This document shows, in pieces, positions 793 through 26,791 of a DNA stretch of 40,588 nucleotides. The position numbers and the translations under genes are program-made. A model generated the notes under the pieces. It did no database searches, was not told where the DNA came from, and saw only the letters and a program-made list of their open reading frames with translations. Position 1 is the first letter of the stretch. Every line of letters starts with the position of its first letter. Location of the stretch: contig CAZYIM010000027.1 in assembly GCA_964647565.1 (NCBI GenBank), positions 1 to 40,588 on the forward strand, read 5' to 3'. The stretch is from an uncultured Methanosarcinales archaeon. GTDB taxonomy: Archaea > Nanobdellota > Nanobdellia > Woesearchaeales > CAZYIM01.

Positions 793-1701
793 TCATTTTG
801 TTATACCCCCATTCGACTTACGCCCATTTTTTCGCTTATTAACTAAGTATATTATTATGTATAAAATAACTGCTAAGACTGTTAGTAATAACGCAACATT
901 ATTACTTTTTGAAATACCAACGAAAGAAAGCAAGGCGGAAAAACCTTTTGTAACCAGTGCTAATACACTTAAATAAAAAATTAAAAGTATACTAGATCTA
1001 ATAATAACGATGGGTGATTTTAGAGATGGATTTTCTTTAAAGAAGGTTTCTTCTCCAAAGATTATTTCTCTAAGCTTATGAAATGCTAGTGAAAAAAAAT
1101 TTTCTACAATATTTTGATTTGTATCCTTTATGTTAATCTCTTCACCAAGTTGAACCTTAGTTGGTTTCTGTGTATCATCAGATGATTTTATTATTAATTC
1201 ACATTTATTGATGTATTCATCAATTATTTCAATAAGTTTAGATTTTACTGATGAAATAATGCGAGAAAGATGGGCGGGAGGAACATGAGCTTGAAAGACA
1301 GGTACATTAAAAACTTCTCTTAGTGCTTGTCCATTTACAGGATTTAGTATCCAGTATGATTCTATATGCTCTTCTATAAATGAAATTTCTTGGCCAACAG
1401 GATATTTTTGTGCGTCTTTTTTGATTTTTTGGTCTTCAATAATTATTGGTCTTTTATACTCATCGTAAAATTGACAATATGTTATTCTATATTCAGGAAG
1501 ATTTTTTTCTAATTCACCAACAGTTTTAAATTTATGATAACCATTTAATTCCAAATCTATCCATTCAAAATTTACTGAATCGTTTAATGATTTTGCAATG
1601 GATCTTACTGTTAGCAATGCTGAACTAATTTTAATCTCATCCTTAATAAGGTCGTCTTTAGTTTGAATTAACTGTTGTATGATTCTAGGATAATTCACCA
1701 T
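793..1701 (-). CDS. Hypothetical protein with a soluble N-terminal domain and two C-terminal TM helices.
   Basis: 302-aa ORF. C-terminal ILLIFYLSVLALV... and VALLLTVLAVILYIIIYLV hydrophobic helices. No motif recognised with confidence. Confidence 0.55.
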   Translation of the reverse strand: MVNYPRIIQQLIQTKDDLIKDEIKISSALLTVRSIAKSLNDSVNFEWIDLELNGYHKFKTVGELEKNLPEYRITYCQFYDEYKRPIIIEDQKIKKDAQKYPVGQEISFIEEHIESYWILNPVNGQALREVFNVPVFQAHVPPAHLSRIISSVKSKLIEIIDEYINKCELIIKSSDDTQKPTKVQLGEEINIKDTNQNIVENFFSLAFHKLREIIFGEETFFKENPSLKSPIVIIRSSILLIFYLSVLALVTKGFSALLSFVGISKSNNVALLLTVLAVILYIIIYLVNKRKNGRKSNGGITK

Positions 1702-8105: not shown

Positions 8106-9205
8106 TCTACTATTTTGGAATCCATAAGGTATTTATATATTTTTTCTGCAGCAAGCCTATGAGCCTTTTGATTTGAATGTACAATGTCCAGATAATCATA
8201 CTTCAATGACATATAATGATACTCTTTATATACATCCAGGATGTCTAAGGAAAAAAAGTCATTTTCCTCTGCTTCATTCAACACCTGTTCATGCACCTCT
8301 GTTAAGGGATAGTCATCATAATCAAGCACCAATGGAAAGATGATCACCAAAACATCGAAATCATTCTTTTCAGACAACTCCCTCAATTCACTAAAAGAAT
8401 CCTCTATCCGCTTCCATGAGCAGCTGTTGCTATGCATCTGCTGTGCTTTTTCAACTCCGTCAACTACCCTAAGGCCTGTTTCGTATTGTATATTGCTAAA
8501 AGTCCTTACTGTCTTCAACCTGCCTATATCATGACCTAATCCGCACAGGAATGAGCTCTTATAGCTGATATGCCTTTCCCTCGCATCAAACTCTTTTTGT
8601 GTGTGCAAATGCCGATAAGGTGTGTCTGTCATGATCGGATCGTTCAATGTATACTGCAGTATTACAAGGTCAGGATCATATTTCAATCCCTTCTCCTTTA
8701 GCAGTTCTATCTCCTGCATGGTGCCATATCCGTCCAGGCCAAAGCTTATGATCTCCACTGCATTGTCAGCCAACTGCCTTTCCAGAACACTATGATAGCA
8801 TTCATCCAATTTAAAGCTTCCTCCGCACATCGAGACAGAATCACCAAGGACAATCACCCGAAAAACACCATCTTCTTTTTCCACTTCATACTCTGTATCC
8901 CTCAATCCATCGTTATTGAACTTGTTGGTGATATTTGCAGAAGTTGTATACTCATAATTTGGCATCCCTTCATAGCCAAGTATGATGTTATTGCTCTTTA
9001 ATATAAATGAATCTTTGTTTCTTGGTGCGAGAGCGAATTTTTCTTCTTCCAAAGGTACAATATACCTAAACACTATAAGTTCAGAAATCAGGAACATCAA
9101 AACTATGACTTCAACTAATAACAGGATTTTTTTATGAGTCTTTCTCTTCTTATTTTTTCTTTTTGAGCCGGCCATAGTAGAATGTGGTTCCAGATAACAA
9201 TCCAT
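8102..9205 (-). CDS. SGNH/GDSL-family hydrolase with N-terminal membrane anchor.
   Basis: 367 aa. Basic N-terminus plus TM helix. VIVLGDSVS (GDS block), DGYGT and LNDP blocks. Likely true start MAGSKRK (9175). Confidence 0.55.
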   Translation of the reverse strand: MDCYLEPHSTMAGSKRKNKKRKTHKKILLLVEVIVLMFLISELIVFRYIVPLEEEKFALAPRNKDSFILKSNNIILGYEGMPNYEYTTSANITNKFNNDGLRDTEYEVEKEDGVFRVIVLGDSVSMCGGSFKLDECYHSVLERQLADNAVEIISFGLDGYGTMQEIELLKEKGLKYDPDLVILQYTLNDPIMTDTPYRHLHTQKEFDARERHISYKSSFLCGLGHDIGRLKTVRTFSNIQYETGLRVVDGVEKAQQMHSNSCSWKRIEDSFSELRELSEKNDFDVLVIIFPLVLDYDDYPLTEVHEQVLNEAEENDFFSLDILDVYKEYHYMSLKYDYLDIVHSNQKAHRLAAEKIYKYLMDSKIVE

Positions 9206-9596
9206 ATGTAAAGCAAAGGACAGCGATTATGAATAAGTGCTCAGTCGCAAGATAACTGGTCAATAAGATGACAGGCAGCAAAGGATAGGTGAACCTGTCA
9301 ATATCCCTGGCAAACTTGAGCAGTATCAGCAATAGGATGATGGAAAGGATTCCCCAATAGCCTACTAGATAATATAGCAAGAGAGCAACAATAAGAGAAA
9401 ACAATAGCTTCTTTGCAAACAGGAAATACTTCCTTCCGTCTGCCAATTCTTCTTTTGTGAACCTGGCAATTATAGCACCCACAACAGGGCCAAGAGAAAC
9501 AACAACCACAACCAATATGAAAGTCAGTAACGGGCTCATCAAGAATTGTGAAAACAAGGCCTTTATATTTCTTACGATTACGGCAGATAGAGTCAA
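9150..9596 (-). CDS. Small polytopic membrane protein, about 4 TM helices.
   Basis: 148 aa, almost entirely hydrophobic helices. TTG start in the track, so the true start is uncertain. Confidence 0.5.
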   Translation of the reverse strand: MTLSAVIVRNIKALFSQFLMSPLLTFILVVVVVSLGPVVGAIIARFTKEELADGRKYFLFAKKLLFSLIVALLLYYLVGYWGILSIILLLILLKFARDIDRFTYPLLPVILLTSYLATEHLFIIAVLCFTYGLLSGTTFYYGRLKKKK

Positions 9597-9704
9597 GTTA
9601 GAATGTCAGATATCCAGCCATACATGGCAGCAGACGGCCTTCGGCCTGCGAGGCACCCCATAGGGTTTCCCCCGCCTCGCCTGCGCCATGTCTGGATATT
9701 ACAC
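9590..9704. other. GC-rich, highly structured 115-bp element, flanked by an 11-bp direct repeat TACGGCAGATA. Candidate small ncRNA, cis-regulatory leader or miniature inserted element.
   Basis: Intergenic between two minus-strand genes. Closing stem ATATCCAG(CCAT)ACATGG at 9610-9627 pairs with CCATGTCTGGATAT at 9686-9699. Internal hairpin GGCC-TTC-GGCC; stem GCGAGGC/GCCTCGC; CCC-ATA-GGG. The 11-mer repeat is at 9579-9589 and 9705-9715. Local GC is far above the surroundings. Confidence 0.4.
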
Positions 9705-10585
9705 TACGGCAGATACACGCCATACTTTTCCTGGGAGACCTGCATCGGTCTTTTCACAGCTTCGCAATAACCCTCAACAGGGCATTCAGCTTGCATCTTA
9801 CAGGCCATATCCCTTCTTTTGTTGCAGCCGTACTTGCTCAGGTTCCATAGCGGTTCATCAAGATCAAACTTGCTAAAACCATTCTCTATTGCAGCTTCAG
9901 ACCATAGACTGTCAATCAATTTAGCAGTATTCTTTATCTCGCTTTGGAATCCCTCGCCCTTTAGACATCCAGTATAGAAGGTTGCTCTTGCAACATGGAC
10001 ATCGACTGCTAAGGGTATGCTTTCAATATTCTTTATATTGAGCTTGCAGGAATCCTTAAGCATTCTTATCCATAATGGAAGGATCTTATCGCCAGTCAAA
10101 CATGGGAACTCCTTCCTGTAGCCTTTCATAGTATTATATATAATAGAAGCATCCAGTCCACATCCATCAACTAAAAAACCCTTCATATCACCGTCAAAAA
10201 TATCCTTTATGCTTCTTGAGATGGTCTGCCAATACTTGGCATCAAGATTATACTTTTTGGAAAGCTTATGCACCTGCAGGCCTTTGACAAGCTCTTCAAG
10301 ATTATCAGTTCTTGGAGAATCCAGGTCAAACACCCATCTGGTCTTTGGATCCTCAAAAGTCTCAACACCAGCCTTCCACAACTGCTCTGCATTCCGCATA
10401 TAATCAAGGGCAGTCACAAGAGTGAAATAATTGACATGATTCTTAGAACCTCTTATCAAACCCTTAGGCTTTGCCAATTCAGGCATATGCTCTGCTGTCT
10501 GGCCAAAGACACCTTGGGTCCTATAAGCATCCAATAAAGCCTCTGCTACCTGTTTTGCCCTTCTTTTGTCGAATTCCAAGTTCAT
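9704..10585 (-). CDS. HhH-GPD-superfamily base-excision DNA glycosylase-like protein with a C-terminal 4-Cys cluster.
   Basis: 293 aa. IPLAVDVHVARATFYTG resembles the EndoIII GPD block (IAVDTHIFRVCNRT). C-terminal CNKRRDMACKMQAECPVEGYC (C-x7-C-x5-C-x5-C) is a probable Fe-S site. Confidence 0.45.
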   Translation of the reverse strand: MNLEFDKRRAKQVAEALLDAYRTQGVFGQTAEHMPELAKPKGLIRGSKNHVNYFTLVTALDYMRNAEQLWKAGVETFEDPKTRWVFDLDSPRTDNLEELVKGLQVHKLSKKYNLDAKYWQTISRSIKDIFDGDMKGFLVDGCGLDASIIYNTMKGYRKEFPCLTGDKILPLWIRMLKDSCKLNIKNIESIPLAVDVHVARATFYTGCLKGEGFQSEIKNTAKLIDSLWSEAAIENGFSKFDLDEPLWNLSKYGCNKRRDMACKMQAECPVEGYCEAVKRPMQVSQEKYGVYLP

Positions 10586-12399: not shown

Positions 12400-12404
12400 A
12401 AAAC

Positions 12405-12650
12405 TCACTTATACACGTTTTTTCTATGATCAAAGCAATTGACTATTATCTTGTTGTTTTCTAATCTATAAATGATCCTAAAGGGAGGGATTCTTGCACT
12501 ACGATGACCTTTGAGGCCATATTTCAAAGGTTTTCCTGATTCTGGGAGTTGTCCTAATTTTTTAATATGCTTAATCAGGTTTAATCTCATGGATTTGTCT
12601 TTAATTTTCTTAAAATCTTTTTTAAACTCTTCAGAAAATATGATCTGCAT
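12405..12650 (-). CDS. RelE/ParE-family type II toxin.
   Basis: 81 aa. GKPLKYGLKGHRSARIPPFRIIYRLENNKIIV is a RelE/ParE core. Directly downstream of the antitoxin gene. Confidence 0.7.
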   Translation of the reverse strand: MQIIFSEEFKKDFKKIKDKSMRLNLIKHIKKLGQLPESGKPLKYGLKGHRSARIPPFRIIYRLENNKIIVNCFDHRKNVYK

Positions 12651-12653
12651 TTT

Positions 12654-12938
12654 TTAGTTTATTAATAAGTCATCAATCTCTTTGTCGTTCATTTTTGTGT
12701 CAGCTTTGATGAATCTGCCTTTTTCGATATCTTCTTCGCTCTTTCTTATTTGGTCTATTAATAGCAGATCTTCTTTTAGAGATTCCTTTTTTATCTGTTT
12801 TAACAATATGTTTCCATCTTGGTTGAACACTAAAAATTGTGTTGATGGTTTTATGTCCGCATCTTTCCTGACTTCTGAAGGGATTACAACCTGCCCATTC
12901 TGGGATATTTTTGTTATTGAAACTTCCATTTGTATCAC
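12654..12938 (-). CDS. AbrB/SpoVT-like antitoxin.
   Basis: 94 aa. ISQNGQVVIPSEVRK AbrB-type N-terminus plus acidic C-terminal tail. 3-nt gap to the toxin. Confidence 0.6.
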   Translation of the reverse strand: MIQMEVSITKISQNGQVVIPSEVRKDADIKPSTQFLVFNQDGNILLKQIKKESLKEDLLLIDQIRKSEEDIEKGRFIKADTKMNDKEIDDLLIN

Positions 12939-13095
12939 CTACAATACATTTTAATATTAAAACGTATTGTATATATATATATGTTTTTCGGTTTTATAGC
13001 TTAGAAAAGTTTATTTTGCTTCTATCAATAAATTCACCAAATAGTAGTAAACTAACGACATATTTATATAAAAACATTCATTCTCTCTTGCTACA

Positions 13096-13596
13096 ATGGC
13101 ATCAGGAAATTTTATACTCGGAACGCACGCAAAAATGGAAGATTTTGTCAACTATGTTGAACCTGAATTAAAAGAAAAAGGCTGCACAGTTGTTGGCAAA
13201 AGTGTTTTTACAGAATACGAAAAAAGAGACCAACATACTTTCACAAATAACTATATCATGGTTTCTATTGTTGGTAAAGAAGACCTTGAAGAAGCTGTCA
13301 ATGACTCACTTATAGAGGCCGGCGACAAGATGCAAAAGCTAAAGGACGCCGGAGAAGAGGAACATAAGAATCTTTGGCCAGATAGCATCAGATATCGGTC
13401 CAGTACAGCAGGCAAAGATCCCGAAGCCTACTTTAAGACTGTTGAGATCTTCCCAACAGCTGATGCTGCCGGAAGACTCTTCCCAGACAGGATACAAGCA
13501 TATCTTACACTGGAACGAGAGGTCAAGATTGCCCAGATTGCAGAAAAGCTTCAGAAATTCGGAGAAGCCATGTCAGGCCTGACCAAACTAAGATAA
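13096..13596 (+). CDS. Hypothetical protein.
   Basis: 166-aa ORF, no recognised motif. Confidence 0.5.
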   Translation: MASGNFILGTHAKMEDFVNYVEPELKEKGCTVVGKSVFTEYEKRDQHTFTNNYIMVSIVGKEDLEEAVNDSLIEAGDKMQKLKDAGEEEHKNLWPDSIRYRSSTAGKDPEAYFKTVEIFPTADAAGRLFPDRIQAYLTLEREVKIAQIAEKLQKFGEAMSGLTKLR

Positions 13597-15618: not shown

Positions 15619-16944
15619 CTACTTAAACAATCCCTTAAAGAAATTCATAATCTTTACAAAAAGATTTGGTTTGTCATCGTACTCTTTATACTCAACCGTT
15701 AAATTCCCTTGAGAAGGTTCAGTTTCAGGAATTTCTGGTTCAATGTCTTCAGCTGATCCAATCGCATAAAGCCCGCTCCAGCTTCCAACATATATCGTGT
15801 CCTTGCCGATTGCAGGAGAAGAGGCCCAGCCTTTTACATTTGCCCTCCACTTTTCAGTTCCATGGGGATATATTGCAAAAAAGTCTGAGCCATACAGATC
15901 CTTAGAGCCCATATATATTGTCCCGTCTGCACCAATTGCAGGCGAGCAACCACCTTCATCTGGCAGAGCATAGAGCCATTTTACCTTGCCTTCAGGCGAG
16001 ACAGCATACAGGTTCTTATCATCACCTCCAATGTAGATAGTGCCATCAGCTCCAATCGCTGGAGAGCTCCAGACATCAATCGAAGGCCCTAATTGAATCC
16101 ACCATTTTTCTTTTCCATCAGAACTGACTGCGTATAATTTTCCTGCTCTTGTCGAACCAACGTAGATTGTGCCATCTTTTCCAATGGCAGGAGAAGAATC
16201 AGCGAAATCCTCAAATTCAAAAGCCCACTTTCTTTTACCTTTAGGTGTTATTGCATGCAGGTGTTTATCTCCGGATCCTATATATATTGTCCCATCATCT
16301 CCTACTGCAGCAGATGAGCATATATCGCCCCTGGTTGAATAATTCCATAATAGCTTGCCATCAGGACTTAGTGCATACAATTTACCTCGAAAATCATCAT
16401 GCGAACCAACGTAGACTGTTCCATCTTTTCCAATTGCAGGAGAATTCCAGATATCTATAGACAAATCGATCTCATAGCGCCACTTCTCTGTTCCATCAGG
16501 ATTCAGAGCAAAAAGAAGGTCGCTTTGGGATGTGAAATAGATGGTTCCATCTTTTGCAACAGCAGGAGAAGAAAGTATTCCTTTGGTTCCGCTGTATTTT
16601 GCAGTGCCGCTTTGACTATAAACCGGACCATCTCCTACCTGGAAATGCCATTTTTCACTACCATCCGGATTGATTGCATATAATACATTCTGGTGGGATC
16701 CGATGTATATTGTTCCATCAGCGCCGATTGCAGGAGATGATTCCATGCCTTTATCAGATTCAAAAACCCACTTTATCGTGCCGTCAATATGACTGGTATC
16801 ATGTGGGCTAAGACCTGTATTTTTCATATTGCCTCTCCACTTTGACCATGGAGAATCCGCAAGCTGTGCCGAGGCAAGTCCTATTGACACTAAAAAGATT
16901 ATTGCAATCAACCATCTCTTCATATCGATGACCTCTTTTGTCAA
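15619..16944 (-). CDS. Secreted PQQ-repeat (BamB-like) beta-propeller protein.
   Basis: 441 aa. Signal-peptide-like N-terminus MKRWLIAIIFLVSIGLASAQLA. About 8 repeats of the DGTIYIGS...LYA(IV).PDG.EKW pattern. Confidence 0.7.
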   Translation of the reverse strand: MTKEVIDMKRWLIAIIFLVSIGLASAQLADSPWSKWRGNMKNTGLSPHDTSHIDGTIKWVFESDKGMESSPAIGADGTIYIGSHQNVLYAINPDGSEKWHFQVGDGPVYSQSGTAKYSGTKGILSSPAVAKDGTIYFTSQSDLLFALNPDGTEKWRYEIDLSIDIWNSPAIGKDGTVYVGSHDDFRGKLYALSPDGKLLWNYSTRGDICSSAAVGDDGTIYIGSGDKHLHAITPKGKRKWAFEFEDFADSSPAIGKDGTIYVGSTRAGKLYAVSSDGKEKWWIQLGPSIDVWSSPAIGADGTIYIGGDDKNLYAVSPEGKVKWLYALPDEGGCSPAIGADGTIYMGSKDLYGSDFFAIYPHGTEKWRANVKGWASSPAIGKDTIYVGSWSGLYAIGSAEDIEPEIPETEPSQGNLTVEYKEYDDKPNLFVKIMNFFKGLFK

Positions 16945-19721: not shown

Positions 19722-19768
19722 TTAACCTGCTGAATGTCCTCCCCAGCCTGCTGCGCTCCTATAGCATC
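19722..19768. repeat. 47-bp perfect direct repeat, copy 1 (orphan copy of the 3' end of gene 20392..21540).
   Basis: TTAACCTGCTGAATGTCCTCCCCAGCCTGCTGCGCTCCTATAGCATC is identical to 20392-20438. Confidence 0.9.
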
Positions 19769-19839: not shown

Positions 19840-20088
19840 CTATACTTCCCGATAATCATGTTTCCTAAAGAGAATGTCTGCAATAATTATTTGATTTGCT
19901 TTAAGCTCATAGATTATTCGGTATTTGTTTACATGAATTGACCAATATGGATTTGCTTTAAGTTTCTTTCCGAGTGGAGCTCTTAATTCCAGCTTCTGAA
20001 TTTTCTTCCATATTTGTTTCTTTAGTATTTTATCTTCAATTTTAGAAAAAGATTTGTCAAATTGTTCACTAAAAATCAACGTATACAT
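19840..20088 (-). CDS. RelE/ParE-family type II toxin.
   Basis: 82 aa. YWSIHVNKYRIIYELKANQIIIADILFRKH is a RelE/ParE core. 1-nt gap from the upstream antitoxin. Confidence 0.65.
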   Translation of the reverse strand: MYTLIFSEQFDKSFSKIEDKILKKQIWKKIQKLELRAPLGKKLKANPYWSIHVNKYRIIYELKANQIIIADILFRKHDYREV

Positions 20089-20089
20089 T

Positions 20090-20275
20090 TTAACTTAATT
20101 TAGGATGTCTCCTCAGGAACTCAGATTTTGTTAGAAAAGGACCTTTCATTGCCTTTTTTATCTTTCTAAGCTCGTCTTTAGTTAATTCATCAGTCTCAAT
20201 GTAACGATCAAATAAGTCTGCCTTATTTTTAAGCAGATCATATTCTTCTTTTGGTATAATCATAGTTTCAGACAT
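20090..20275 (-). CDS. Putative antitoxin (small helical protein).
   Basis: 61-aa ORF immediately upstream of, and co-oriented with, the RelE gene. Confidence 0.5.
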   Translation of the reverse strand: MSETMIIPKEEYDLLKNKADLFDRYIETDELTKDELRKIKKAMKGPFLTKSEFLRRHPKLS

Positions 20276-20391: not shown

Positions 20392-20438
20392 TTAACCTGC
20401 TGAATGTCCTCCCCAGCCTGCTGCGCTCCTATAGCATC
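20392..20438. repeat. 47-bp direct repeat, copy 2 (true 3' end of gene 20392..21540).
   Basis: Identical to 19722-19768. Contains the stop codon (TTA on the plus strand) and the last 15 codons. Confidence 0.9.
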
Positions 20439-21540
20439 CATCTCCATCATAAAACCCGGAGCCTGATGAACGGTATGAGCTGGAAGATGACTTTTTCTCT
20501 TTGGTTGGATCGCCCAATAACTGGGATCTGTTCAGGCCGATCCTTAGCAGTCTTTTATCATATATGCTCACTTTCTCATCTTCAAGCCTGTCATTTATGT
20601 AATTCTCAAATCCTGCTATGGTTCCTGTCTCAAATGCTGGCTTTAATAGTTTCACAGTAATCCTTCCAAGGAGATTTCTGTTTGGGATCGTAATCTTGTC
20701 CAGATGCTCTGCATCCATCCTCTTGTATTCACCAGCCAGGTCTATCTTATGCTTTTTACCATCAAAAGAGCTGTGGCTCACCACAACCAGGTCATCAATG
20801 GATTTGGCATCCAGTTCCCTGATGTGCAGTCTGTCAGGATCTATTATCTGATTAAGGGCTGATGAACCATACTCGCATTTAGCTGGATCTTTAAATTTTC
20901 GTATATAACAAAATCCTGAAGAATAGCTTACATCCAATTTTCTGACTGGGCCCTCTGAGCAGAGTTGCACTGTCTGGAGATCATACTCCCTTATGAACCT
21001 TGGCTCCTGGTTGCGGACAGGAAGTATCTTGATGTTAAAGGTGCAGTTATAGGTCTTGCTATCCCTGCCATCACTAATGATCCTGTCTGTAGAATCTCTA
21101 TAAGACTCATACCAGCTCTTTTTAGATTGATAGTCATCTGATGCCCAATAGTCTTTCTTCTTTTCCATCTTATGCAGTTGCTTGGATAGAATATCCCTTT
21201 TTTTCTCATATTTCAAAAACAATTCTGTCTCCTCTCTGGTTAGGTTGGAGTATTTCATCCTTTCATCCTTCCAGATCTTGGCAGATAAAGCAAACCTATA
21301 ATCCTCTGTCTGGCCCATCATTGCCTCAAGAAGGATATGTGTGCCATATCCAGGGAACTTATAGTTCAGCTTTTCAAGCAGATAGACATTGTGATTGTGA
21401 TATGCACCTTTCTTGGCAGTATTAATGGCTGAACTGATGAAATTATCATGGTCAAACAATTTGTTCCTAAAATAGTCAAATTTTCCTTTTTTCATTTTTT
21501 CTACCTCTGAAAGTTGTTTTCTTTTGGACTGCCTCAGCAA
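20392..21540 (-). CDS. Hypothetical protein with Ser/Gly-rich C-terminal tail (…SSSSSYRSSGSGFYDGDGCYRSAAGWGGHSAG).
   Basis: 382-aa ORF. No recognised domain. Confidence 0.55.
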   Translation of the reverse strand: MLRQSKRKQLSEVEKMKKGKFDYFRNKLFDHDNFISSAINTAKKGAYHNHNVYLLEKLNYKFPGYGTHILLEAMMGQTEDYRFALSAKIWKDERMKYSNLTREETELFLKYEKKRDILSKQLHKMEKKKDYWASDDYQSKKSWYESYRDSTDRIISDGRDSKTYNCTFNIKILPVRNQEPRFIREYDLQTVQLCSEGPVRKLDVSYSSGFCYIRKFKDPAKCEYGSSALNQIIDPDRLHIRELDAKSIDDLVVVSHSSFDGKKHKIDLAGEYKRMDAEHLDKITIPNRNLLGRITVKLLKPAFETGTIAGFENYINDRLEDEKVSIYDKRLLRIGLNRSQLLGDPTKEKKSSSSSYRSSGSGFYDGDGCYRSAAGWGGHSAG

Positions 21541-24655: not shown

Positions 24656-24850
24656 TTTAATCTTAGTAAATTTAATATCGGATAATTGATATTTTTTTAA
24701 TTTATCCTTAATAAATTTTGACCAATCATCTATGATGAAACATAGAGCAGATACTCAAGTATATAAACATTCCCCAATAAACCTTGTTCTTTTTACTAGG
24801 GTAGATAGAACAAAACTCCCCCTTTATATAAAATACAAAAGAAGTCTTAG

Positions 24851-24905
24851 GTGCTGATCAGATCTTTTTTCTATAATGAAATGCGTATTCATCAAAGTCA
24901 TAGCT
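24851..24905. repeat. 55-bp direct repeat (51 bp perfect plus GTG with 1 mismatch), copy A (orphan copy of the 3' end of GNAT gene 26744..27181).
   Basis: TGATCAGATCTTTTTTCTATAATGAAATGCGTATTCATCAAAGTCATAGCT is identical to 26741-26791. On the minus strand it encodes SYDFDEYAFHYRKKI-stop. Confidence 0.9.
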
Positions 24906-26736
24906 TACATTCCTGGACATGTTTGCACATAAACAAAACAATGTCTCGTTTAATGGGTGCTAAGTTCAATAAGATTTGGAGTCCTAAAAAGATAAAGGGG
25001 TCTGGAAATTTTAGATAAATTCTTAAATAGATAGTTCTCTTTTGTTCATAACATGAATCCAATATTATCAGAAGTAAAATACGTTGTTGAAAATTCAGAA
25101 CACGTCAAAATTAATGTTGATGCCATAAAAACAGTTGTAGATGGTTTTTCCCCTGAAGATAAAGTTCCTTGGACTGACATTCTTCCATTTAAACCACAGA
25201 ATCTAACTAAAAAAGAAAGAATTGCTTTTAATTTTGTATTTAATGCAATTAATTTTTCATATTGGGGAAATCCAAAATGGACAATCAAATACCAAGATAA
25301 AGAATTAGATGGTTCTTGGGCAATGATTGGCTCAATTCATCGTGCGATTGAAGAAGGTTATGATATTTTGAATCCAAAATATCTGATAAATATTAGTGAG
25401 GAAAATTTTGATCATATTTTTCGAGGAAACGTAAAAGTTCCACTTTTTAATGAGAGATTAGAAATCCTTCGAAAACTTGGAAAAATAATATGTTCTGATT
25501 TTAATGATGATTTTGAAAATGTTTTAATAGAATCTAATTATGAATCTGAGAAACTGCTCAATATAATTACTTCTAAATTTGATTTTTTTAATGACTATTC
25601 CCTGTACAAAAATAAAAAAGTGCATTTTCATAAAAGAGCCCAATTACTAATTGGAGATATTTATGAATTATTGCTGGAATTCAAGCAAGAAAGCATAAAA
25701 AACATAAATTTTTTGACTGCTTTTGCTGATTACAAAATACCTCAGATTCTAAGAAAACTTAATGTCTTGGAATATTCTAAAGAGTTAGAAAATTTAATTG
25801 GTAATAAAATAGAGATGGAATCTGGAAATCCGATGGAAGTAGAAATAAGAGCAAATATGATATGGGCAATTGAATTAATTAAAGAAGAAATAAACAAAAA
25901 ATATCCTGAAATTAATTCAATGAATATAGATCACTATTTGTGGATTCTTTCACAAGATAAAAAGAAAGATGATAAACCATATCACCTAACAAGAACTATT
26001 AATTATTAAAAAATTGCAATTTTACTCAGAATTTCTGGCGCAGAGTTTATAAATTAAGCTGAATTCCCCTTGTTTATGGGAATTGATTTTTCAGAATTGC
26101 CTTGGGAAGATCTTGAAGTTGAAGATCATGATTGGCCTGGAGGAAAGTCCATTAAATGGTTGTCTGGCAGAGTAACTATTAATGAATATGGTTATGATAT
26201 AACGGATCGTGTTGAATTATATATACTTCCTGATGGAATTGAATACTTAGCACAACATCCTCAAGCTCTTAATAGTTGGTTAAATGAGGATTTTTTTTGT
26301 CAGAAGAAAAATATCGAGGTCCAACAGCTCTAAGAGGCAGGTATGTTCAACAACTAACTCTAGATGGAGAGGTATTTGCACAAAAAACTTATGGAAATAA
26401 TGATGTCGAAAGCGCATTTAAACAAGCAGGTTTCTATCGAAAATTAGATGAACAACTAGACCCCAGTAATGTAAGAATTCCCAAATTATTCTTTGCTCTG
26501 GAACGGAGATTATTAATGGAACCCTTGTTTGGTTTTCCCAATATTGAGGATCTAAGAATAAAAAGTGGTTCTGATCAAGATATCCTGGCCTTTTTTGACA
26601 AACAAGAAAAACCAGACAAACCTTTAGTTGAAGAAGATGGAATCTACGTACTAAAAGGCAATCCTATTGAAAAATCAGAGTTTATATTGACTGATCCGAG
26701 AGTTAATAACGCTAAAAATTCTTCCAGCATACTAAA
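24906..26736. mobile_element. Very AT-rich (about 27% GC) inserted island bounded by the 55-bp direct repeats. Carries Qng1-like gene plus a frameshifted gene. No integrase inside.
   Basis: Bounded by the direct repeats. Strong compositional contrast with flanks (about 45-50% GC at 33.3 kb). Confidence 0.45.
25053..26009 (+). CDS. Qng1/DUF2419-family queuosine salvage protein (queuosine 5'-phosphate N-glycosylase/hydrolase-like).
   Basis: 318 aa. Blocks AFNFVFNAINFSYW, HKRAQLLIGDIY, AFADYKIPQIL, MEVEIRANMIWAIELIK and IDHYLW align to conserved blocks of Qng1 (…NFSFW…YKRAQILVADTW…MFADYRLPQVL…QEVEIRGCSLWCVELIR…LDYYLW). Confidence 0.75.
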   Translation: MNPILSEVKYVVENSEHVKINVDAIKTVVDGFSPEDKVPWTDILPFKPQNLTKKERIAFNFVFNAINFSYWGNPKWTIKYQDKELDGSWAMIGSIHRAIEEGYDILNPKYLINISEENFDHIFRGNVKVPLFNERLEILRKLGKIICSDFNDDFENVLIESNYESEKLLNIITSKFDFFNDYSLYKNKKVHFHKRAQLLIGDIYELLLEFKQESIKNINFLTAFADYKIPQILRKLNVLEYSKELENLIGNKIEMESGNPMEVEIRANMIWAIELIKEEINKKYPEINSMNIDHYLWILSQDKKKDDKPYHLTRTINY

Positions 26737-26743
26737 GTGTTGA
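26070..26743 (+). pseudogene. Hypothetical gene split into two ORFs (26070..26333 and 26297..26743) at a T8 homopolymer (26291-26298). Frameshifted, slippage-prone, or a sequencing error.
   Basis: Two overlapping ORFs in different frames switch exactly at TTTTTTTT. The second ORF has no ATG (TTG only). Confidence 0.35.
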
Positions 26744-26791
26744 TCAGATCTTTTTTCTATAATGAAATGCGTATTCATCAAAGTCATAGCT
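26737..26791. repeat. 55-bp direct repeat, copy B (true 3' end of the GNAT gene).
   Basis: Matches 24851-24905. Confidence 0.9.

Follow-up and report, generated by a model that had tools for sequence, protein, structure and literature searches.

Short GC-rich palindromic elements occur in several AT-rich, compact genomes, among them the GC clusters of yeast mitochondria, the double-hairpin elements of fungal mitochondria and the Rickettsia palindromic elements, and what defines families of the GC-cluster type is a copy number of tens to hundreds in each genome. In a census of prokaryotic miniature transposable elements with inverted repeats (MITEs), a woesearchaeal genome was among the most MITE-dense archaeal genomes, and target duplications were usually 2-10 bp long (PMC11602168). 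Here we analysed a 40,588-nt stretch of DNA, called the window below, from an uncultured archaeon named as a member of the Methanosarcinales and placed in the Woesearchaeales by the GTDB lineage (assembly GCA_964647565.1, contig CAZYIM010000027.1, positions 1 to 40,588). Its subject is a GC-rich, strongly structured segment of 115 bp (9590-9704) that lies between two minus-strand genes. The segment is best read as an insertion at the 3' end of a DNA glycosylase gene, and we tentatively interpret it as a non-autonomous miniature mobile element.

The segment separates two copies of an exact 11-bp direct repeat, TACGGCAGATA (9579-9589 and 9705-9715), which has just these two exact occurrences in the window. 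The repeat and the 115 bp between its copies had been described in a first-pass annotation of this DNA, and both were borne out. The similarity extends imperfectly beyond the 11 bp (TTACGATTACGGCAGATA versus TTAC-ACTACGGCAGATA). When a 95-nt frame was slid along the whole window and exact repeats of at least 11 nt were sought in its 30-nt flanks, one other place was found besides the element, a coding tandem repeat at 16418/16544. Local 11-mer repeats counted without this restriction were not rare in the window (10 observed versus 4.5 expected); the bracketing is what is unusual.

The reading frame of the glycosylase gene carries the argument further. As the first-pass annotation had noted for this HhH-GPD gene, the proximal copy begins inside its stop codon, at the second base of TAG (9704-9706, minus strand) of the 293-codon gene 9704..10585, and the last base of the insert, C 9704, supplies the third base of this present stop. 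Read on the minus strand, the proximal copy gives TAT CTG CCG TA(G), the end of the gene, and the distal copy TAT CTG CCG TA(A); in the glycosylase frame both thus encode Tyr-Leu-Pro-stop. Of the two, the distal one is found directly upstream of the transcription factor B recognition element (BRE) and TATA box of the next gene, which encodes a membrane protein, and from its frame it appears to be the displaced original tail of the glycosylase gene. In-silico removal of one repeat copy and the 115 bp (126 bp together) gave ...GGCGTGTATCTGCCGTAATCGTAAGAAATATAAAGG..., in which the glycosylase gene ends with TAA at -42 to -40 of the next ATG and the BRE/TATA follows within 10 nt. The intergenic spacer of this reconstructed empty site is 38 nt, comparable to window spacers of 34 nt (from the Zip gene to the glycosylase gene), 35 nt and 39 nt. 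The present spacer is 164 nt; window spacers of 127-424 nt also occur, so it is no outlier by itself, and what speaks for insertion is the repeat together with the reading frame. An exact, non-random repeat, the Tyr-Leu-Pro-stop encoded by each of its copies and the compact junction restored by deletion of 126 bp make an insertion of foreign or mobile origin the best-supported reading of the sequence; it spans 126 bp, made up of the 115-bp element and one 11-bp target copy. The features of the locus are collected in Table 1. The nearest named homologue of the glycosylase is from Candidatus Woesearchaeota (54% identity).

Table 1. Features of the inserted segment and the two genes that flank it.
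Feature	Coordinates	Strand	Basis or remark
Direct repeat, copy 1 (distal)	9579..9589	none	Minus-strand reading TAT CTG CCG TA+A, Tyr-Leu-Pro-stop
Spacer GAGTCAAGTTAGAATGTCA, AT-rich, unpaired, 19 nt	9590..9608	none	Separates the core from repeat copy 1
Structured GC-rich core	9609..9700	none	Fold computation, z-scores, GC peak
ACAC tail of the inserted segment	9701..9704	none	From the sequence; plus-strand ACA directly after the closing helix
Direct repeat, copy 2 (proximal)	9705..9715	none	Contiguous with gene 9704..10585; last three codons and two stop bases
Target gene, AGOG-like N-glycosylase/DNA lyase, HhH-GPD superfamily, 293 aa	9704..10585	-	Weak PF09171 match; homologues carry PF09171
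Multi-pass membrane protein gene, 129 aa, no Pfam family, orphan	9150..9539	-	Gene calls, Pfam scan, homologue search
TATA box AATATAAA with preceding BRE-like CGTAAGA	9562..9569	-	Starts exactly -30 from ATG 9539; outside the insertion

The GC content of the segment had been described as far above its surroundings, and this was confirmed: the 80-nt stretch 9614-9693 has 67.5% GC versus a window mean of 38.4% (+3.7 standard deviations) and ranks second among the 80-nt values in 40.6 kb, after a Gly-rich coding repeat. Folding also reproduced the architecture proposed in the first-pass annotation, with a closing stem interrupted by a CCAT bulge, two hairpins and a following ACA. The closing helix has 20 bp in three segments (9+7+4 bp), with bulges on the 5' side alone (4 nt and 1 nt). 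P1 (9609-9617/9692-9700) is followed by the CCAU bulge (9618-9621), P1b (9622-9628/9685-9691) by a bulged A (9629), and P1c (9630-9633/9681-9684) by a tight three-way junction that caps the helix and carries the hairpins P2 (GGCC-UUC-GGCC, 9636-9646, with a UUC triloop) and P3 (GCGAGGC.../...GCCUCGC, 9648-9680). On the plus strand, ACA at 9701-9703 comes directly after the helix end at 9700. The 95-nt core 9609-9703, with 67% GC, folded as plus-strand RNA with -49.0 kcal/mol and z = -6.19 against dinucleotide shuffles, the minimum-energy structure making up 72% of the ensemble; for minus-strand RNA the values were z = -4.81 and 21%, and for single-stranded DNA z = -6.9 and -6.3 for the two strands. 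All helix pairs are Watson-Crick except one terminal G-U, so the thermodynamics leaves both the strand and the choice between DNA and RNA undecided. The 19-nt spacer next to the left repeat is unpaired and makes the element asymmetric, with no terminal inverted repeat abutting the direct repeat.

We tentatively favour a non-autonomous miniature mobile element, either MITE-like or a palindromic element akin to the GC clusters of AT-rich genomes. An enzyme supplied in trans would have made an 11-nt staggered cut and inserted the element into the last three codons and the stop of the AGOG-like glycosylase gene, and filling-in of the stagger would have given the 11-bp direct repeat; we infer both this mechanism and the mobility of the element. 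The marks shared with miniature elements are small size, a strong hairpin, no coding capacity and a flanking duplication: the 115 bp carry no transposase and fall within the size range of such short non-coding elements (about 50-800 bp), and the target-site duplication of 11 bp is exact. The MITE density of a woesearchaeal genome in the census cited above also favours this reading, as do the lack of anything similar behind orthologous glycosylase genes of other lineages and the lack of a match to a known RNA family or a tRNA. On the glycosylase transcript the element would now fall within the 3' untranslated region, with the nearest U-run downstream of the stop (9549-9556) reached only past the element. 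Given this location, and one upstream of the neighbour's promoter, its present effect is probably neutral, or at most that of a 3'-end-protecting hairpin or an insulator.

Several observations weigh against a miniature mobile element. The 11-bp duplication is at or above the usual range of 2-10 bp. Terminal inverted repeats of at least 10 bp adjoining the duplication are lacking; the termini of the insert, GAGTCAAG... and ...ATTACAC, are not complementary, and the inverted repeat (8+7 bp with a 4-nt bulge) is subterminal, starting 20 nt in from the left end and 5 nt in from the right. As one defining feature of MITEs thus fails, we describe the segment as working like a miniature insertion and give it no family name. 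The apical three-way junction is no simple palindrome and has more the look of an RNA fold under selection. The host's own GC content is unlike that of the element, and the window open reading frames (ORFs) scanned included neither a transposase nor an integrase. The search for further copies that the first-pass annotation had recommended, done with blastn-short and nhmmer, gave a single copy in the 40.6-kb window. Exact 19-22-mers revealed no copy of the element in the genome, metagenome and viral contig collections, which do not contain the source genome beyond the window, and none was seen in phages, plasmids or 5.8 billion proteins. Proteins at the window edges led to contigs of 1.3-3 kb only. 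Seven other contigs from several samples contain the locus (L001-L005, L021, L022) and are 99.6-100% identical to the window, with the element invariant; together with the window they represent one strain, so that no empty site was observed. Samples with the locus include JGI 3300009374 and 3300009128 and ENA ERZ23499040, ERZ23499064 and ERZ23498658. Of the miniature insertion put forward in the first-pass annotation, the insertion stands (exact repeat, shared tail, compact restored junction), whereas a MITE-like multi-copy nature, the property that defines a mobile family, stays hypothetical (one copy in 40.6 kb and none in the collections searched).

In the individual searches, a 20-mer of the element had 10 matches in the genome contig collection, all in GC-rich bacteria; none extended past 20-21 nt and they are therefore chance matches. 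Two different 20-22-mers had no matches in the metagenome contig collection, which evidently lacks the source sample, and two exact patterns had none in the viral contig collection. With blastn, the phage and plasmid collections gave chance fragments alone (E = 1). Concatenated six-frame peptides of the element were compared with the 5.8 billion proteins to catch spurious ORFs over other copies, with no matches. In the loci of glycosylase orthologues (L006-L010, 49-55% identity) there was no synteny, the next gene was overlapping or convergent, and no GC-rich element was present downstream. The 20-mer CGGCCTTCGGCCTGCGAGGC was found three times at about 1-kb spacing at 477-2448 of a contig from a Syntrophobacter metagenome-assembled genome (L011, CAZIJV010000023.1) and once more on L016 from the same genome. 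It is probably an unrelated local repeat there, the similarity to the element stopping at the 20-mer.

The main rival explanation of the duplication is site-specific or homology-driven (Campbell-type) integration at the gene 3' end, an origin that we consider unlikely. The 11-bp repeat would then be an att core and the 115 bp a mini-cassette or remnant, that is all or the leftover of the integrated DNA, produced by a process common to the two larger insertions in the window. One of these is bounded by a perfect 47-bp repeat (19722-19768 / 20392-20438) that starts at the stop codon of gene 20392..21540; the 623 bp enclosed by it encode a toxin of the ParE type (82 aa) and an antitoxin (61 aa). 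In the other, the tail of a GNAT acetyltransferase gene (26744..27181) lies within a 55-60-bp repeat of 95% identity (24846-24905 / 26732-26791), and the 1.8 kb between the copies carry two small ORFs besides a gene for queuosine salvage (PF10343, 25053..26009). The geometry that the first-pass annotation had seen in all three insertions was verified, each repeat covering the 3' terminus of a minus-strand gene whose complete copy is proximal, and at the glycosylase gene too the repeat equals the gene tail and the gene is intact, both copies reading Tyr-Leu-Pro-stop. By our own estimate a stop-overlapping 11-bp duplication is expected in about 1/10 of tolerated random sites, while for 3'-end targeting it is the rule, and integration at gene tails better explains a repeat that covers the stop codon. 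The asymmetric ends without terminal inverted repeats fit as well. In a 641-bp contig (L030) the two ends of the toxin/antitoxin insert, left and then right, are linked through the repeat, as they would be in an excised circle or a tandem copy, which hints that cassettes of this type are active; however, the junction may be an assembly artefact across the 47-bp repeat. The 115 bp hold no ORF, and hence neither an integrase nor a cargo gene, and a double-stranded circle of 126 bp is physically implausible, so a secondary deletion must be assumed. Moreover, the 11-bp core is far shorter than 47-60 bp, the three repeats have no common sequence, and there is no integrase in the window. It is doubtful, too, that the segment is a gene for a small structured RNA specific to this lineage, about 95-135 nt long and probably on the plus strand, an idea that is compatible with either account of the insertion, as the insert may carry an RNA gene, and that could hold with or without arrival by insertion. 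Transcription would be divergent from the quasi-symmetric TATA at 9562-9569 and would end at the T-run 9726-9729. GC-rich small RNAs were reportedly found as GC islands in AT-rich archaeal genomes by the approach of Klein, Misulovin and Eddy (2002), and the segment is a GC island in an AT-rich genome, like tRNA and rRNA genes. Its multi-branched fold is well defined, above all on the plus strand, where the TATA reads TTTATATT with 7/8 matches to the window consensus and starts 28-31 nt before 9590-9593, the spacing of window promoters; TTTT is placed 25 nt after the helix. On the other hand, there was no match among the 4227 families of Rfam, even at E = 10, and no homologue in any collection searched. 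The BRE-like purine stretch is placed correctly for the minus-strand orientation of the TATA only, the near-full Watson-Crick helices are equally a DNA palindrome, and the flanking duplication marks a recent arrival, not a conserved gene. The two ideas might be combined in a mobile small-RNA cassette, which we regard as improbable: a lineage-specific RNA of about 100 nt would have been delivered to the gene tail by the process behind the toxin/antitoxin and queuosine-salvage cassettes, 10-15 kb away, and the neighbour's TATA, acting in the divergent direction, would drive its expression.

The first-pass annotation had further offered a riboswitch or structured 5' leader of the minus-strand membrane-protein gene, taken to span 9150..9596 with a TTG start, and an H/ACA-like RNA. 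The segment is indeed strongly structured and situated upstream of the membrane-protein gene, with which it shares the strand; a start at TTG 9596, or transcription from upstream of the element, would place it in the mRNA. Independent gene calls on metagenome contigs covering the gene start, however, use ATG 9539, and a canonical TATA is found at -30 of this ATG, so that ATG 9539, not TTG 9596, is almost certainly the start. This is the geometry of most genes in the window: upstream of the long ORFs, about 14 genes have a TTTAWAWA box that follows a GAAA-type BRE and starts 30-33 nt before the ATG; these window promoters have the archaeal BRE/TATA form, and as read from the sequence their regular spacing implies that mRNAs in the window would be mostly leaderless. 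The structured element is at -51 to -165 relative to ATG 9539. With the TATA between the two, the promoter geometry would put the element upstream of the promoter and not in the membrane-protein mRNA. No riboswitch family matched (Rfam, E <= 10). The membrane protein has no Pfam family (neither CrcB nor SMR) and no homologue other than itself among the 5.8 billion proteins, so no conserved association between RNA and gene was seen; a riboswitch or leader is, on these grounds, very improbable. Less probable still is a plus-strand guide RNA of the archaeal H/ACA class. The ACA immediately 3' of the basal helix fits, and size and GC richness are compatible, but the two-sided internal loop that would form a pseudouridylation pocket some 14-16 nt away from the ACA is absent, the helix bulges being 5'-sided only, and P2 and P3 have no tandem G-A/A-G pairs, K-turn or K-loop for L7Ae. 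No Rfam H/ACA model matched. In the Rfam scan that the first-pass annotation had recommended, no family matched the element at the gathering score over the whole window, or at E <= 10 in the 501 nt and 161 nt around it. The riboswitch and H/ACA readings can be dropped.

Other identities were examined and rejected. In integron attC sites the outer R''/R' boxes, RYYYAAC ... GTTRRRY, pair at the hairpin base and occur in cassette arrays; the hairpin base here, GATATCCAG/CTGGATATT, is without the AAC...GTT pair, and no similar element occurs elsewhere in the window. By inspection, there is no CUGANGA/GAAA core of a hammerhead or twister-type ribozyme and no C box of a C/D box RNA, and a bulge-helix-bulge splicing motif does not fit, both bulges (4 nt and 1 nt) being on one strand. 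Fragments of 5S rRNA, signal recognition particle RNA or RNase P were rejected on the lack of a local Rfam match. ARAGORN found no tRNA in the whole window, and the Rfam tRNA model had no match. No ORF was called over the element by gene callers; a coding small ORF from ATG 9603 was rejected as well, as it would begin 41 nt from where the TATA starts and is without homologues.

The wider region resembles an accessory or defence island, with a gene for an abortive-infection protein, AbiTii (793..1701, minus strand), and two toxin-antitoxin pairs, a MazE/ParE pair at about 12400-12942 (gene calls on L021) and a second, ParE-type pair at 19840-20275 inside the insert with the 47-bp repeat. Overlapping AT-rich palindromes (20 nt with 95% complementarity and 27 nt with 74%) are found at 12940-12998, between the MazE/ParE pair and gene 13096..13596. 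A beta-propeller gene (PQQ/ACSF4-type, 15619..16944, minus strand) has seven DNA-level repeats with a 120-129-nt period. It holds the sole other repeat of at least 11 nt with 126-nt spacing, and this match in spacing is coincidental. The gene at 29918..32290 (minus strand) encodes a protein of 790 aa that is homologous to the major vault protein (MVP) of eukaryotes, with Pfam matches to MVP_shoulder (3.9e-28), Vault_3 (7.9e-08) and Vault_4 (1.5e-05); phmmer aligned residues 186-706 (about 520 residues) with major vault proteins in the PDB at E = 5e-26. An earlier survey found no MVP in archaea (bioRxiv 10.1101/872010), and archaeal homologues have so far been reported solely from Asgard archaea, as ten sequences (PMC12962969). 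MVP in a Woesearchaeota-like genome would be unusual. The thought that the element is a vault-type RNA linked to this protein, suggested by size and closing helix only, has next to no probability.

If the segment is a miniature mobile element, it would add a further orphan family, from an archaeon of DPANN type with poor sampling, and would serve mainly as a marker of recent insertion activity in an accessory region where defence and toxin-antitoxin genes abound. An expressed structured RNA, if true, would raise its importance. Should the three tail-duplicating insertions share one mechanism, they would represent an archaeal route of cassette acquisition at gene 3' ends without a local integrase, and a mobile small-RNA cassette, if true, would point to an unrecognised archaeal integration system that targets gene 3' ends and is able to carry RNA-only cargo. 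The regular promoter architecture is useful for annotating gene starts in this lineage.

In comparison to known systems, the element resembles archaeal H/ACA and other GC-island small RNAs in being GC-rich over about 100 nt within AT-rich DNA and in having a stable helix and then ACA, and differs from them in having no pocket, K-turn, Rfam match or conservation. Integrase-type elements at the tails of archaeal and bacterial tRNA or protein genes are alike in that the repeat equals the gene tail including the stop and the gene is intact; they carry integrase or cargo genes and usually a core longer than 11 bp, whereas the insert here is 115 bp without an ORF. With the GC-cluster type of element it shares a short GC-rich hairpin insert in an AT-rich, gene-dense genome, the site at a gene end and a short duplication, but here there is one known copy, an archaeal host and a longer duplication. 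MITEs such as Correia/NEMIS of Neisseria, RUP of Streptococcus pneumoniae and those derived from IS4/IS231 are likewise about 100 bp and non-coding with a long hairpin, sit at gene boundaries between short exact target repeats and join the untranslated region of a neighbouring transcript. The element departs from them in its subterminal inverted repeats, its 11-bp versus 2-10-bp duplication, its three-way junction and a GC content far above that of the host; neither a second copy nor a cognate transposase is known. It is most likely an orphan insertion, MITE-like or derived from integration, and its closest kinds are MITEs, GC-rich palindromic mini-elements and tail-duplicating insertions of the integrase type.

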